In this document: in pieces, positions 10,110 through 14,167 of the stretch
Layout of the letters: the number at the start of each line of letters is the position of its first letter
Numbering within the stretch: position 1 is the first letter of the stretch
Assembly: GCA_044866005.1 (NCBI GenBank)
Contig: JBIOTN010000004.1
Coordinates: forward strand, 1-44,846
Source of the DNA: Candidatus Rokuibacteriota bacterium
GTDB taxonomy: Bacteria > Methylomirabilota > Methylomirabilia > Rokubacteriales > DASRDR01
DNA: 44,846 bases
Direction: 5' to 3'
Program-made: the position numbers and the translations under genes
The notes under the pieces: model-generated
The model's input: the letters and a program-made list of their open reading frames with translations, nothing else
Database searches by the model: none
What the model was told of the DNA's origin: nothing

Positions 10110-12260
10110 TCAGCCGACGGAGGCGAGATCCAGCCCCTCGCGCCAGCGCGCGACGAGCGCCTCGCGGAGCGCGCGGTGCTCCGGCGCGCGGAGCCGAGGG
10201 TCGCGCTCGACCAGGACGAACGCCTCCCGCCGGGCCTCCTCGAGGAGTCGGCCATCCGTGAGCAGGTTCGCCGCGCGGAACTCGGGCAGGCCGGCCTGCC
10301 GGGTCCCGAAGAAGTCGCCGGGGCCGCGGATCTGGAGGTCGACCTCCGCGATCCGGAAGCCGTCCTGCGTCTCGCACATGGCCTGAAGCCGCTGCTGGGC
10401 CTCGTCCGAGAGGAGCCCGGAGGCGAGCAGGATGCAGTAGGCGCGGGCGCCGCCGCGCCCGACGCGGCCGCGGAGCTGGTGGAGCTGGGCCAGGCCGAAG
10501 CGCTCGGCGTGCTCGATCAGCATCACGGACGCGTTGGGGACGTCGATCCCGACCTCGATGACCGTCGTCGCCACGAGGACGTCGAGGTCTCGGGCCTTGA
10601 ACGCGCGCATGACGGCATCCTTCGCGTCGAAGGACATGCGCCCGTGGATCAGCCCGACGCGGCGGTCGGGAAAGACCTCGGCCGCCAGGCGCTCGGCCAT
10701 GGCCGTCGCCGCCTTGAGGTCGGACGCTTCCGTCTCCTCGACCAGCGGGTAGACCACGTAGGCTTGACGCCCGGCCTCGAGCTCGCCGCGGATGAACTCG
10801 TAGATCTGCGCGCGCTTCGCCTCGGCGCGCCAGACGGTCGTGATCGCCTGGCGCCCGGGCGGGAGCTCGTCGAGGACGGACACGTCGAGGTCGCCGTAGA
10901 GCGTCAGGGCAAGCGTCCGGGGGATCGGCGTCGCCGTCATGACGAGCACGTCCGGGTATTCGCCCTTGGCCCGGAGCGAGGCGCGCTGCAGCACGCCGAA
11001 GCGATGCTGCTCGTCCACGACGACGAGGCCGAGCCGGTGGAAGGCGACGCGTTCCTGGATCAACGCGTGGGTCCCGATGACGATCGGCGCGGCGCCGCTT
11101 CGCACCGCGGCGAGGACCGCCTCGCGCTGGCGGACCTTCTGCCCGGAGGTGAGCAGCGCGACCGGGACCCCGAGCGGCTCGACGAGGGCTCGCACGGTCC
11201 CCAGGTGCTGCTCGGCCAGGATCTCGGTCGGCGCCATGAGCACGGCCTGGTAGCCGGCCTCGACGGCGGTGAGGAGCGCCATGACGGCCACGATCGTCTT
11301 GCCCGACCCGACGTCGCCCTGGAGGAGGCGGTTCGTCGCGGTCGGACGGGCCAGGTCGGCGCGGATCTCCTCCCAGACCCGCCGCTGCGCGGCGGTCAGC
11401 TCGAACGGGAGCGTGGCCCGGAGCCGCTCGACCAGCTCGCCCGGAGGCGCCATGGCGTGCCCCGGCCGCGCCCCCTCGCGCCGGCGCCGGATGGCGAGCC
11501 CGAGCTGGAGCAGGAAGAAGTCCTCGAACACGAACCGGCGGCGCGCGGCTTCCGCGGCCTCCAGCGACTCGGGAAAGTGGATCGTCCGATAGGCCAGGGG
11601 GGCCGGCAGGAGGTCCCGCCGCCGCCGCAACTCATCCGGCAGGGCGTCCGGCACGGCGTCCGCGAAGCGCTCGACCACCCGGTGCTGGAGCGAGCGCATC
11701 GGTCGCTGCGTGAGCCCTTCGGTGAGTCCGTAGATCGGCACGATCCGCCCCATGTGGAGCGAGGCGTCGTCGCCGTCCTCCACGATTTCGAATTCCGGGT
11801 TCTGGAAGACCGGCTTGCGGTTCCTGTCCGGAGCGACCTTGCCGTGGAGGACGACGCGCTGACCGCGCTTGAAGACCTGGGCCAGGTAGGGCTGGTTGAA
11901 CCAGAGGCTCCCGAAGAAGCCGGAGTCGTCGCGGAACAGGACGCGAAGCGGGACGCGGGGCCGGCCCCGGGGCGGCGGGGACAGCCCGACGACCGTGCCT
12001 GCGGCCGTGTGGGTCTCGCCGATCCGCACCTGGCGGAACGGCACGAGCTGGCGGCGATCCTCGTAGCGGTGCGGAAACCAGCTCAGGGCGTCGCGGATCG
12101 TGTGGAGGCCGAGCCGATCGAGGAGCCGGGCGCGCTGCGGGCCGACACCCTTGAAGTACTGGAGCGGGCTCTCGAGAGCCGGCGCCGGGTCAGGCCGCGG
12201 GTCCACCGGAGGCTCGGCGGGCCGGGTCGGAGGCCGGGCTTGTTTCACCGCGCTCTCCAT
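10110..12260 (-). CDS. recG: ATP-dependent DNA helicase RecG
   Basis: LLQGDVGSGKT, MAPTEILAEQH, DEQHRFGV, MTATPIPRTL, QLHQLRGRVGRG, RGPGDFFGTRQAG. Confidence 0.97.
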   Translation of the reverse strand: MESAVKQARPPTRPAEPPVDPRPDPAPALESPLQYFKGVGPQRARLLDRLGLHTIRDALSWFPHRYEDRRQLVPFRQVRIGETHTAAGTVVGLSPPPRGRPRVPLRVLFRDDSGFFGSLWFNQPYLAQVFKRGQRVVLHGKVAPDRNRKPVFQNPEFEIVEDGDDASLHMGRIVPIYGLTEGLTQRPMRSLQHRVVERFADAVPDALPDELRRRRDLLPAPLAYRTIHFPESLEAAEAARRRFVFEDFFLLQLGLAIRRRREGARPGHAMAPPGELVERLRATLPFELTAAQRRVWEEIRADLARPTATNRLLQGDVGSGKTIVAVMALLTAVEAGYQAVLMAPTEILAEQHLGTVRALVEPLGVPVALLTSGQKVRQREAVLAAVRSGAAPIVIGTHALIQERVAFHRLGLVVVDEQHRFGVLQRASLRAKGEYPDVLVMTATPIPRTLALTLYGDLDVSVLDELPPGRQAITTVWRAEAKRAQIYEFIRGELEAGRQAYVVYPLVEETEASDLKAATAMAERLAAEVFPDRRVGLIHGRMSFDAKDAVMRAFKARDLDVLVATTVIEVGIDVPNASVMLIEHAERFGLAQLHQLRGRVGRGGARAYCILLASGLLSDEAQQRLQAMCETQDGFRIAEVDLQIRGPGDFFGTRQAGLPEFRAANLLTDGRLLEEARREAFVLVERDPRLRAPEHRALREALVARWREGLDLASVG

Positions 12261-12324
12261 GGTATAGAAAAGCGTCGCCCCCCGGCAAGCCGCGCGGGGC
12301 GTCATTGCTTTTGAGGAGCCACTC

Positions 12325-12516
12325 ATGGCACAGCGTTGCGATGTCTGCGGGAAGGGTCCCGTCGTGGGTCACCAGATCAGCCACGCGCACAACGTGAGCA
12401 AGCGTCGATGGCTGCCGAACCTCGTGGCCATCCGCGCGGTCGTGGACGGTCGGGCCCGCCGGATCCGCGTCTGCACGCGCTGCCTGCGCACGGGCAAGAT
12501 CGTCAAGGCCGTCTAG
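12325..12516 (+). CDS. rpmB: 50S ribosomal protein L28
   Basis: MAQRCDVCGK..ISHAHNVSKRRWLPNL..VCTRCLR; SD GAGGAG. Confidence 0.97.
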   Translation: MAQRCDVCGKGPVVGHQISHAHNVSKRRWLPNLVAIRAVVDGRARRIRVCTRCLRTGKIVKAV

Positions 12517-12580
12517 TCCCAGATCGGACGGGGCCGCCACGGCCTCCCCGAGACCGCTCCGGCGTCTGCGACGAAACGCC

Positions 12581-12611
12581 GGCCGCCGAGGAGGGGCGCT
12601 CCCCGGCGGCC
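12581..12611 (-). terminator. Putative terminator hairpin between the convergent rpmB and micro-ORF unit
   Basis: Minus strand GGCCGCCGGGGAG-cgccc-CTCCTCGGCGGCC forms a 13-bp stem with one G-U pair. The U tail is weak. Confidence 0.45.
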
Positions 12612-12665
12612 GTCACGATGAGTCCCGGGCGGGGGCCGCTACCTCGCCCCGCACCCGATCCCACG

Positions 12666-12704
12666 TTACTTCTTCTTCTTCTTGGCGGCCTTCTTCTTCG
12701 CCAC
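12666..12704 (-). CDS. Lysine-rich micropeptide MAKKKAAKKKKK (12 aa; 15 aa if ATG 12713 is used)
   Basis: GGGAGGTGAT-gcgcaca-GTG GCG AAG AAG AAG GCC GCC (AAG)5 TAA. A full anti-SD match lies 7 nt upstream of the GTG. Confidence 0.7.
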   Translation of the reverse strand: MAKKKAAKKKKK

Positions 12705-12783
12705 TGTGCGCATCACCTCCCTTTCGTTAGGGTCGGCTGGCGGGGAGGCTGCACCCGTCCCCGCCTCGCCTTGGCGCTCCTAG

Positions 12784-12819
12784 CTACTTCTTCTTCTTGG
12801 CCTTTTTCCTCGTCGCCAT
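12784..12819 (-). CDS. Lysine-rich micropeptide MATRKKAKKKK (11 aa)
   Basis: GGAGGAGGTGA-gagag-ATG GCG ACG AGG AAA AAG GCC (AAG)4 TAG. Confidence 0.7.
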   Translation of the reverse strand: MATRKKAKKKK

Positions 12820-12889
12820 CTCTCTCACCTCCTCCCCACGCTGGGGTCGCGCCCTCGATCTCGGGCGCGCGCGCAGTCCGGGCACGAGC

Positions 12890-13936
12890 CTAGAAGCCCA
12901 TCGCGTCCCGGCGCAGCTTGTCGGCCTGCTCCCGTCCCCGTCGCTCGTGGTGATAGAGATCCACGTACAGTTGCGGGAGGCAGACGACGCGGAGTCCGCC
13001 CTTCGTGAGCGGCGCGTAGAAAACGCCGAGGTCGTACGGCGTCATGAGGTAGACCGTGCCTTCGCCCTCGACCGGCTGAAGCCCCAGTGCCCGGGCCACC
13101 GGCTCCGAGTCGCCGCCCACGTAGCAGTGGATGGTGGGCACCCGGACCTGCGGCCCGACGAGCGAGGCGCCGGCGTGGAGCGTGAACGCGTAGCTCATCC
13201 CGGCGGCCGCGGCCTGGCGTGCCAGGCTCTCCATGAGTCGCCGCTTGTCGGCGACCGGCGAGACGAAGGCCGCGGTGGTGTTCACCCGGTAGGTGTACTC
13301 GTCGCGCCACGCGTCGAGGAGCTCCCCGGGCCGCTGGAGGCGGAAGCGCCCCTCCGGGCCGCGCTCGATCCACTCGACGTCCTCGAGCCGCCGCACGACG
13401 TTGTGGGCGTGCCCGAGGCTCACCGAAGCCGCGCGGCCGAGCTCCTCCAGGCGCCAGCTGCGATCGCGCTCGACGAGAAGGGCCCGGACGATCCGCGTCG
13501 CCCGCGGCGCGAAAAGCGCCTTGAGCGGGCGGCTGGCCGGCCGCACGTTCGGCTTGCCCTCCTTCTCGATGAGCACGTTGTCGAAGGCGAGGTAACAGTT
13601 GCCGGAGAGATCGACGTACCCCGAGCCGTGCTGCCGGAGCAGGGCCGCCGACTGCGGACTGATGTACGGCGCGACCGCGACGGAATAGGCACCGGGGACC
13701 TGCTCCCGCAGGCCACGGAGGCGCGTGAGCACCTCGCGGATGTAGCGGGGCTGGCCGACCGGGCGGACCTCGCAGATCAGGACCTTGGTCTCCGAGCCCA
13801 TCCGGAAGCGGACGAGCAGATCGACCGTCTGTTCCCCGACGTGCGTATCGAGAAGCTCTTGCCAATCGGTGGCTTGAGGAAACAGGTTCCGCAGCCGCTG
13901 GGCGGCTTGCTTCTTGAGATCACCGACTCGGACCAT
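12890..13936 (-). CDS. AbiEi-family (AbiEi_2/DUF2186-like) antitoxin/transcriptional regulator
   Basis: VAPYISP..GYVDLSGNCYL, central wHTH (ELGRAASVSLGHAHNVVRRL), LLDAW, C-terminal PQLYVDLY..RGREQA. Confidence 0.75.
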   Translation of the reverse strand: MVRVGDLKKQAAQRLRNLFPQATDWQELLDTHVGEQTVDLLVRFRMGSETKVLICEVRPVGQPRYIREVLTRLRGLREQVPGAYSVAVAPYISPQSAALLRQHGSGYVDLSGNCYLAFDNVLIEKEGKPNVRPASRPLKALFAPRATRIVRALLVERDRSWRLEELGRAASVSLGHAHNVVRRLEDVEWIERGPEGRFRLQRPGELLDAWRDEYTYRVNTTAAFVSPVADKRRLMESLARQAAAAGMSYAFTLHAGASLVGPQVRVPTIHCYVGGDSEPVARALGLQPVEGEGTVYLMTPYDLGVFYAPLTKGGLRVVCLPQLYVDLYHHERRGREQADKLRRDAMGF

Positions 13937-14002
13937 GGTTTCACTTGTCCCGACATTTTCAGCAGCCGCTGAAACACTAGAAGGAAGTGAAAACCTTGTC
14001 AA
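13937..14002 (-). promoter_or_regulatory. Sigma70-type promoter with inverted-repeat operators
   Basis: TTGACA(14002-13997)-17 nt-TAGTGT(13979-13974); inverted pair TTTCACTT...AAGTGAAA and near-palindrome TTTCAGCGGCTGCTGAAA. Confidence 0.7.
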
Positions 14003-14167
14003 GTAAAAAAACGGCGAACCCGGCCGGGCAGTTGACGGTCCACCCCCGTCTGGCCGAAATGCCGTTTTCGAACTCGCGGGCAGCGGGCAAGCCGGCGCTT
14101 GCCCGCCCCGCGCGCCCGCGCTAGAGTGCGCCGCGCGATGGCTGCGGCCAGACGACGGCGCGCCCAC

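Follow-up and report, generated by a model that had tools for sequence, protein, structure and literature searches.

How small can a conserved bacterial gene become, and what might a product made of little besides lysine and alanine do in the cell? These questions are raised by a stretch of DNA of 44,846 nucleotides (nt) from a Candidatus Rokuibacteriota bacterium of the order Rokubacteriales (contig JBIOTN010000004.1, positions 1 to 44,846; hereafter the window), in which two tandem open reading frames (ORFs) of 11 and 12 codons, rich in lysine codons, lie on the minus strand behind a gene for a 348-residue protein with an AbiEi-like region. Comparison with related genomes indicates that these micro-ORFs are very likely real, strongly translated micro-genes, and that they probably make an abundant free polycation.

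Two lysine-rich micro-genes and their coding signals

The immediate locus, in the direction of the micro-genes, consists of the following elements:

12825..12832, minus strand: Shine-Dalgarno (SD) sequence GGAGGTGA of micro-gene A, 5 nt from its ATG
12784..12819, minus strand: micro-gene A, ATG to TAG, 11 codons, MATRKKAKKKK, by direct reading of the sequence
12739..12765, minus strand: hairpin rich in guanine and cytosine (GC) between micro-genes A and B, GGCGGGGACGGG-TGCAG-CCTCCCCGCC
12713..12720, minus strand: SD sequence GGAGGTGA of micro-gene B, 8 nt from its GTG
12666..12704, minus strand: micro-gene B, GTG to TAA, 12 codons, MAKKKAAKKKKK if GTG initiates, by direct reading of the sequence
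12625..12657, minus strand: hairpin 3' of micro-gene B, from RNAalifold, lacking a U-tract and followed by the semi-conserved GGGACTCAT
12581..12611, strand undefined: second GC hairpin, in the stretch that separates the micro-genes from the 3' end of the convergent rpmB, read from the sequence and, by eye, conserved in the loci of the family
12325..12516, plus strand: rpmB (ribosomal protein L28; TIGR00009, E 7e-23), the convergent neighbour, outside the unit

The codons of micro-gene A are ATG GCG ACG AGG AAA AAG GCC AAG AAG AAG AAG TAG, and those of micro-gene B are GTG GCG AAG AAG AAG GCC GCC AAG AAG AAG AAG AAG TAA, reading AKKKAAKKKKK downstream of the start codon. Both ORFs lie, on the minus strand, exactly where the preliminary description of this DNA had placed them, and the GC hairpin that it saw between them and the stem that it saw after the second are present at 12765-12739 and 12657-12625. 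The SD spacing of 5-7 nt given there applies to micro-gene A (5 nt) but not to micro-gene B (8 nt), and the ATG start assumed for micro-gene B has to be replaced by GTG: an in-frame ATG at 12713 directly abuts the SD sequence, and the start codon of relatives (ATG or GTG) stands at the position of the GTG instead. The near-exclusive use of AAG, which had been singled out as a feature, is uninformative because AAG makes up 95% of the lysine codons in the 941 long gene-like ORFs of this genome and is thus plain genome bias. The lysine runs themselves, which give each micro-ORF 7-8 lysine codons among its 11-12, go beyond chance, since the genome (4.67 Mb in 247 contigs, 72.6% GC) contains just 5 runs of at least four AAR codons on both strands, one of them five codons long and the others four; the two micro-ORFs account for the longest and for one of the shorter runs.

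The main evidence for coding comes from relatives. In a syntenic set of 45 loci of Rokubacteriales (phylum Methylomirabilota), drawn from 41 genomes and 4 named records, the SD sequence, start, frame and stop of the micro-ORFs are intact throughout (45/45), which answers the question of conservation that the preliminary description had left to a search of related genomes. Two micro-ORFs are present in 39 of these loci, three in 3 and one in 3, so that 42 of the 45 hold at least two tandem copies. The intergenic DNA was matched in 61 of 61 relatives, and a 71-nt core comprising SD sequence and ORF matches 207 of the 251 genomes of a sample of the phylum, including 20/20 in the family and 151/159 in the largest family of the order, with lower fractions in other orders; matching public contigs bear the names Candidatus Rokuibacteriota or Methylomirabilota. 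Across the loci the upstream protein drops to 53-63% identity while the peptide stays MAKKKAAKKKK(K) or a variant differing in one or two residues, although the first copy takes a form of 21-23 residues in part of the order (e.g. MPKRKKAVKKGGKKKATKKGKRK). The peptide of micro-gene B, MAKKKAAKKKKK, is the consensus of the order and its commonest form (46 of 92 distinct instances).

These 92 instances were gathered by a script that takes intact ORFs of 9-13 internal codons, and the count of their lengths (36, 39 or 42 nt) is thus biased; the length-selection bias is removed by 20 further places that were chosen by DNA match alone, with the frames unseen, every one of which (20/20) holds an intact micro-ORF. 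The 92 instances start with ATG (69) or GTG (23), and only K, A, T and R follow the initial Met, encoded by AAG (706), AAA (16), GCG (163), GCC (81), GCT (7) and GCA (6), with minor contributions from ACC/ACG (15) and AGG/CGG (9). In the 39-nt class, 46 of the 82 differences from the consensus fall at third codon positions, concentrated in the two central alanine codons, most of the remainder being K/R or A/T replacements or arising where a variant peptide is shifted in register. The commonest SD sequence, GG[AG]GGTGA, is complementary to the 3' end of 16S rRNA, and it also precedes all 54 copies from the sister orders considered below. The micro-ORFs of this order stop with TAA (52) or TAG (40) and those of the sister orders with TAG (27) or TAA (27), never with TGA, which amounts to TAA or TAG in 146/146 overall; the long ORFs of the genome end with TGA in 633 cases (67%), TAG in 258 and TAA in 50. 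Such selection of stop codons, combined with a full anti-16S SD sequence at a fixed distance and with synonymous variation, is hard to explain without translation. The proposal that the ORFs are translated is thus judged very likely, on account of signals conserved in 45/45 loci, synonymous variation at alanine and the complete lack of TGA stops.

It is accordingly highly improbable that the locus is no gene at all, and that a non-coding RNA, a DNA motif or a repeat element merely happens to read as an ORF. The low complexity of the AAG repeats and hairpins conserved at the sequence level in the largest family would suit such an explanation, but a perfect SD sequence at a fixed distance, in-frame start and stop, third-position variation and the choice of stop codons are features of translation, and Rfam has no family at threshold over positions 11800-13600, where the best score, 24 bits against a gathering score of 55, falls elsewhere in the region. 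Furthermore, the conservation cannot be due to a long ORF on one strand or the other, because the spacing of the tandem copies (109-121 nt) is out of phase. An antisense poly-leucine ORF, considered as a specific candidate, was rejected both for this out-of-phase spacing and because its ATG, in 'ACTCAT', is missing in several relatives; moreover, the third-position changes at alanine would be non-synonymous in that leucine frame.

The hairpins have been maintained along with the ORFs. For the one between the genes, RNAalifold on 16 sequences of the family predicts 8 pairs, each supported by one or more compensatory double changes; for the one after the last copy, 13 sequences of the family yield 10 pairs, 3 of them with compensatory changes. 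A mixed alignment of two families gave no structure for the latter because the hairpins of the two families are offset, and pairs emerged when the analysis was re-run for each family. As it lacks a U-tract, the hairpin at 12625..12657 is no more than a putative terminator, and that at 12581..12611 is a candidate two-way terminator. In the largest family the hairpin after the last copy has the near-invariant sequence GGTGGGGGGTGGCGGCCTCCCACC. As a separate observation, GGTGGGGGGTGGCGGCCTCCCACC, including its loop UGGCGG, is almost invariant over many genera in which the adjoining protein is merely 55-63% identical, an invariance that exceeds what a plain terminator needs.

The probable operon, the solitary copies and the sister orders

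Upstream of micro-gene A lie a long gene and a promoter, with the following elements:

12890..13936, minus strand: gene for a 348-residue protein with a PD-(D/E)xK-nuclease-like N-terminal domain, a winged helix and an AbiEi_2-like C-terminal domain
13957..14011, minus strand: promoter and possible operator of the operon, comprising a T-run, -35, 17 nt, -10 and a palindrome
14002-13997, minus strand: -35 element TTGACA, preceded by the T-run
13979-13974, minus strand: -10 element TAGTGT, separated from the -35 by a 17-nt spacer
13974-13957, minus strand: palindrome TTTCAGCGGCTGCTGAAA (TTTCAGC-N4-GCTGAAA), overlapping the -10 and the start region

The AbiEi-like gene is followed by the micro-ORFs in 45/45 syntenic loci, after 25-97 nt (median about 30), and in the window its stop lies 70 nt before micro-gene A. 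Its protein matches the Pfam family AbiEi_2 (PF09952) over residues 199-342 (E 1.2e-5, 26.1 bits against a cut-off of 21), with a weak match to MarR-type winged helices ahead of that region; among four relatives of the protein, two gave E 2.5e-6 and 1.1e-6 to PF09952 and one gave nothing at E <= 1e-5. An AlphaFold2 model based on 40 orthologues (mean predicted local distance difference test score 82, predicted template modelling score 0.53) was compared with solved structures by Foldseek, which aligned about 105-120 of its residues to the PD-(D/E)xK nucleases NucS/EndoMS (structures 2vld and 5gke, E 2e-4 to 4e-4), MspJI, Card1 and Cap4, and further matched it to winged helix-turn-helix (wHTH) regulators of the IclR type. 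From the secondary structure of the model, the PD-(D/E)xK-like fold is assigned to the N-terminal domain; D109 is invariant there, and E-G-K is conserved at about residues 126-128. On these grounds the protein could be a functional nuclease to which a winged helix and an AbiEi_2 C-terminal domain are fused.

A simple promoter scan of 12200-13200 found none, the promoter being located further upstream, at 14002-13974. The promoter pattern recurs in 41 of the 43 relatives with enough flank, and so does the palindrome with at most one mismatch (41/43); its perfect form, TTTCAGCGGCTGCTGAAA, occurs once in the whole genome, and the TTGACA-type promoter pattern elsewhere in the genome precedes tRNA genes and a cspA-like gene. 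TTTCAC within the promoter spacer and GTGAAA form a second, wider inverted repeat, and, after the palindrome, AAGTGAAA stands directly ahead of the ATG of the AbiEi-like gene. Given a distance of mostly about 30 nt from the stop of the regulator to the start of the first micro-ORF, co-transcription is the simplest reading, and the claim that the micro-genes share a transcript with the AbiEi-like regulator is plausible in view of the gap of 25-97 nt and of a strong, conserved promoter upstream. The ATG of the regulator gene (13936) has no GGAGG-type SD sequence, and such an arrangement of an SD-less first gene and micro-genes with perfect SD sequences would yield little regulator and much peptide.

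On the other side, L28 is convergent in 44/44 loci of this order with enough flank, and recG lies beyond rpmB on the minus strand, a position downstream on the strand of the micro-ORFs that it holds in 35 syntenic loci. The preliminary description had proposed to look for synteny with the AbiEi-like gene and rpmB; both associations are strict in this order, but rpmB does not accompany the copies in the sister orders (0/30).

The same genome carries a third, solitary micro-gene:

contig C126, 18839-18877, minus strand: GTG-AKKKKAGKKRK (VAKKKKAGKKRK)

It is preceded by GGGGGTGA and by a TTGACA-17-TAACGT promoter, itself behind a T-rich tract, and it ends in a hairpin and U-tract. In 19/19 solitary loci listed from relatives TTGACA lies behind an A/T-rich tract, and most of them show, by eye, a TAG-type -10 about 17 nt downstream of it; the solitary loci also share two downstream hairpins. 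Their neighbours vary, including genes for a phosphoribosyltransferase, an amidohydrolase, NrdR, EamA and a divergent B12-binding radical-SAM protein. At one such locus (L181:1606-1749, in genome G216) a partial L28-like match, 60% identical over 48 residues, is convergent to the solitary micro-gene, and may be a second rpmB paralogue or a remnant.

These solitary copies, as complete small transcription units, argue against a role as leader or attenuator, according to which translation itself would matter, sensing charged tRNA-Lys and deciding whether transcription reads through the hairpins, antisense to rpmB, as far as recG. The lysine codon runs finish 10-15 nt ahead of a hairpin and recG follows on the same strand in 35 loci, and a short ORF rich in the codons of one amino acid followed by a hairpin is what trpL, hisL and pheL present as well. 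However, several differences from those leaders make this explanation quite unlikely: 1) No biosynthetic operon lies downstream, the next gene being the convergent rpmB. 2) RNAalifold gives single hairpins with no competing antiterminator or alternative structure. 3) The alanine positions and the length of the peptide, for which a lysine sensor has no need, are conserved. 4) The solitary copies terminate themselves and are followed by variable genes. 5) Tandem duplication and the exclusive use of TAA and TAG are easier to reconcile with a product than with a sensor.

In loci L170, L179, L184, L186 and L187, which span both families of the order, a B12-binding radical-SAM gene lies divergently beside the solitary micro-gene; the neighbour in L170 contains DUF4070, and many genomes lack this gene. 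This adjacency could be an ancestral position or a functional link. Such a neighbour would fit peptides that are precursors of a modified or exported cationic (antimicrobial) product, akin to ribosomally synthesised and post-translationally modified peptides, and tiny precursor genes such as mccA do exist. Nevertheless, we regard such a role as very unlikely, given that the peptides lack hydrophobic residues as well as any leader or signal sequence, that the operon locus has no transporter or maturase but a regulator-like gene, rpmB and recG as neighbours, and that many genomes do without the radical-SAM gene.

Beyond Rokubacteriales, tandem lysine/alanine (K/A) micro-ORFs with the same SD sequence were found in five genomes representing four further families of the class (e.g. 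MAAKKKAKKAAKKKK, present twice) behind a different gene pair, which encodes a 189-residue winged-helix protein with a weak match to Pol-beta nucleotidyltransferases and an overlapping 149-residue HEPN protein. PADLOC identifies these as PDC-M05A (E 6e-46) and PDC-M05B (E 9e-8). With the HEPN protein as query, 55 of the 251 genomes of the phylum sample match, 0/182 in this order and 55/68 in the rest, where the counts by family are 18/21, 15/15, 6/6, 1/2, 1/1 and 14/20. Among the matches listed, thirty HEPN loci from genomes have the wHTH gene upstream without exception (30/30), and 27 of them carry one to three K/A micro-ORFs within 40-270 nt after the HEPN gene, one of the misses having a flank of only 142 nt; the AbiEi-like gene, L28 and recG are absent from the vicinity of these copies (0/30). 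A metagenome scan with the HEPN alignment recovered 80 loci, and of the 70 with at least 300 nt downstream, 68 carry one to three K/A micro-ORFs on contigs whose GC fraction ranges from 0.48 to 0.71. By BLASTP the AbiEi-like protein has no similarity to the sister-order region (E 0.17). The two lead modules, AbiEi-like and wHTH-nucleotidyltransferase/HEPN, are mutually exclusive by order, and their order-specific distribution, with micro-genes tailing both, points to class-wide operons led by genes of toxin-antitoxin (TA) or defence families.

Could the peptides then belong to a TA- or defence-like module, as a component or as its output, with the upstream proteins controlling them or cooperating with them? 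In such a module the peptide might be a growth-arrest effector that condenses nucleic acids, or a cofactor or neutraliser of a nuclease or RNase. The micro-genes occupy the second (toxin) gene position behind the AbiEi-like gene in 45/45 loci, the PDC-M05A/B-like pair precedes them in 27/30 genome and 68/70 metagenome loci of the sister orders, and the two modules exclude each other; AbiEi autoregulates via its own promoter, and the palindrome in the promoter recalls this. The likeness to AbiE thus extends to the AbiEi_2-like C-terminal domain, the winged helix, the promoter palindrome and the downstream position of the micro-genes, and that of the sister orders to HEPN/MNT systems (the PADLOC candidate PDC-M05) to both genes of the pair. 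Yet the AbiEii gene, with its nucleotidyltransferase, is missing, only micro-ORFs standing between the regulator gene and rpmB, and the 348-residue protein has an extra PD-(D/E)xK-like N-terminal domain. Furthermore, each module is single-copy and found in nearly every genome of its order, whereas TA or defence islands are mobile and patchy, and in other phyla the neighbours of K/A micro-ORFs are unrelated, among the matches listed. Finally, the solitary copy has its own strong promoter and no partner gene in this genome and 19 relatives, which argues against marked toxicity. On balance we consider this explanation unlikely.

The proposed free polycations and their known counterparts

A scan for KKKAAKKKK in one genome per species returned at least 120 loci, and a short K/A-only ORF is present in 78 of 120 among the matches listed. 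Several of the 78 belong, as tails, to longer proteins, among them L21 and topoisomerase, but many of those listed are free-standing with SD sequence and terminator, as in Terriglobales (MATKKKAAKKKKH), Reyranella, Eisenbacteria, Bacteroidota, Verrucomicrobiota, Bifidobacterium, Bdellovibrionales, Patescibacteria and DPANN archaea. The genes beside these micro-ORFs differ from locus to locus, and neither HEPN nor AbiEi genes adjoin them among the matches listed; rpmA is upstream once (L047), and an aminoacyl-tRNA synthetase anticodon-binding domain adjoins three of the listed loci (L053, L073, L075). In two DPANN archaeal lineages (L053, L075) the micro-ORF sits between the 3' end of an aminoacyl-tRNA synthetase gene and a HIT-family gene.

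Such neighbours, and the rpmB gene adjoining the micro-genes in this order, bring to mind the ribosome. The tiny ribosomal proteins bS22, bL37, Thx and eL41 are about 24-33 residues long, Arg/His-rich and non-repetitive. Like them, the present peptides are tiny, very basic and long overlooked by annotation, and the known proteins, which include bS22 and bL37 of mycobacteria, Cutibacterium and Borrelia, are presumed to neutralise the phosphate charge of RNA (PMC10085706, PMC10618245, 10.1101/2023.03.31.535098). The extreme basicity, the signals of high expression and the several gene copies would likewise suit ribosome-bound micro-proteins acting as stoichiometric, rRNA-neutralising subunits. 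However, rpmB is convergent rather than co-transcribed and is lacking beside the sister-order copies; translation-related neighbours amount to about 5 of roughly 48 other-phyla loci among the matches listed, a proportion that has no null model; and the longer relatives, of 22 and 23 residues, match nothing in NCBIfam and Pfam, ribosomal protein models included. Moreover, the known examples have been seen in ribosome structures and exceed the present peptides in size, whereas these have 11-13 residues, consist of K and A only, are known from genes alone, and are encoded by genes that occur in tandem as well as singly, with a TA-like regulator in the operon. A ribosomal subunit is therefore an improbable identity for them.

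The other precedent lies in the K/A-rich tails of larger proteins. The disordered KPAA-repeat tail of PhaF is described as binding RNA through its lysines, and AlgP as associating with polyphosphate granules (PMC12818456). The micro-gene peptides (AKKKAAKKKK) share the short-repeat lysine/alanine composition of PhaF, AlgP and the HupB/Hlp tails, and probably their chemistry (PMC12818456, PMC9239181); they differ in comprising one or two units in a free peptide with its own gene, as against arrays of 9-30 repeats on folded domains. It is because the Lys/Ala-rich tails of PhaF and AlgP bind RNA or associate with polyphosphate that we favour polyanion binding here. The only chemical property of the peptide is dense positive charge on a flexible backbone, and binding to the nucleoid or to ribosomes is an inference from this composition. 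The system as a whole fits the defining features of none of its closest counterparts, be they polybasic ribosomal proteins, H1-like tails, AbiE or HEPN/MNT.

Our preferred reading, to which we give an even chance, is that of a free peptide that binds polyanions, the upstream winged-helix protein setting its level. In Rokubacteriales the micro-genes would be the well-translated distal genes of an operon, the SD-less first gene of which would encode the nuclease-like/winged-helix/AbiEi_2-like protein, and this 348-residue protein would probably regulate the operon via the promoter palindrome. The third copy, with its strong promoter and its intrinsic terminator, forms a unit of its own. The full SD sequences, strong promoters, TAA or TAG stops and at least three copies per genome all suggest a product made in quantity, namely free Lys/Ala peptides of 11-12 residues with about 8-9 basic residues each. 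These would most likely act as diffusible polycations on polyanions such as RNA and ribosomes, DNA or polyphosphate. The idea that they substitute for polyamines finds no support, because the genome has the genes of the spermidine pathway, encoding an AdoMet decarboxylase (speD) and two copies of spermidine synthase (speE).

Several points weigh against this preferred reading: 1) The function is read from composition, because the peptides are too short for tools that detect families, homology or structure. 2) An unstructured peptide of 12 residues might be degraded quickly. 3) The conserved instances stem from related genomes and are not independent events, and the K/A ORFs of other phyla may be convergent low-complexity genes. 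4) Among the sequencing runs on record that hold this DNA none is of RNA, the 6 runs being DNA from soil metagenomes in 2 studies, with 4 of them as possible sources of the genome. 5) A simple housekeeping polycation leaves the tight linkage to TA- or defence-like genes across the class unexplained.

The view that the system is undescribed is upheld within the scope searched, in which the longer relatives have no family model and the literature has no description. One of 4 longer relatives, of 23 residues, is on record in the protein collection, as a 'hypothetical protein' of the Joint Genome Institute. A homology search with a 40-residue K/A ORF from Bacteroidia produced 3204 candidates and nothing at E <= 0.001, probably because of composition filtering, and a profile search of solved structures gave no match. 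The literature, queried also with the string KKKAAKKKK and with subscription journals and supplements outside the scope, contained no description of such micro-genes, and the sORFdb paper does not mention lysine.

As an observation on another part of the same genome, contigs C89 and C190 hold two Pup-like ORFs ending in ...QRGGE; the genome would thus seem to possess a pupylation system and perhaps a second copy of Pup.

Probable encoded polycations in Methylomirabilia

If the peptides are made, they would be among the shortest conserved gene products of bacteria, and would represent a genetically encoded polycation, a class of component absent from annotation, from proteomics and from the family libraries searched. 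Proteomics would miss them because trypsin destroys them, and the micro-genes would exemplify how gene callers with length thresholds pass over conserved genes. They are near-universal in an abundant uncultured lineage of soil bacteria, with several copies per genome and signals of high expression, and many other phyla, DPANN archaea among them, have genes like these. The micro-genes are strictly linked to genes of TA or defence type, which suggests that their physiological role is regulated.

A broader proposal, which at present we think doubtful, would hold for Methylomirabilia as a whole: the oligolysine peptides would be the regulated output of an operon led by TA or defence genes, condensing or shielding RNA, ribosomes or DNA, and the K/A micro-genes of other phyla would be free-standing versions of the same effector. 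If true, this would constitute a new type of system, in which a module of nucleic-acid enzyme and regulator controls, or cooperates with, a genetically encoded polycation, with a role in, for example, dormancy or phage defence.

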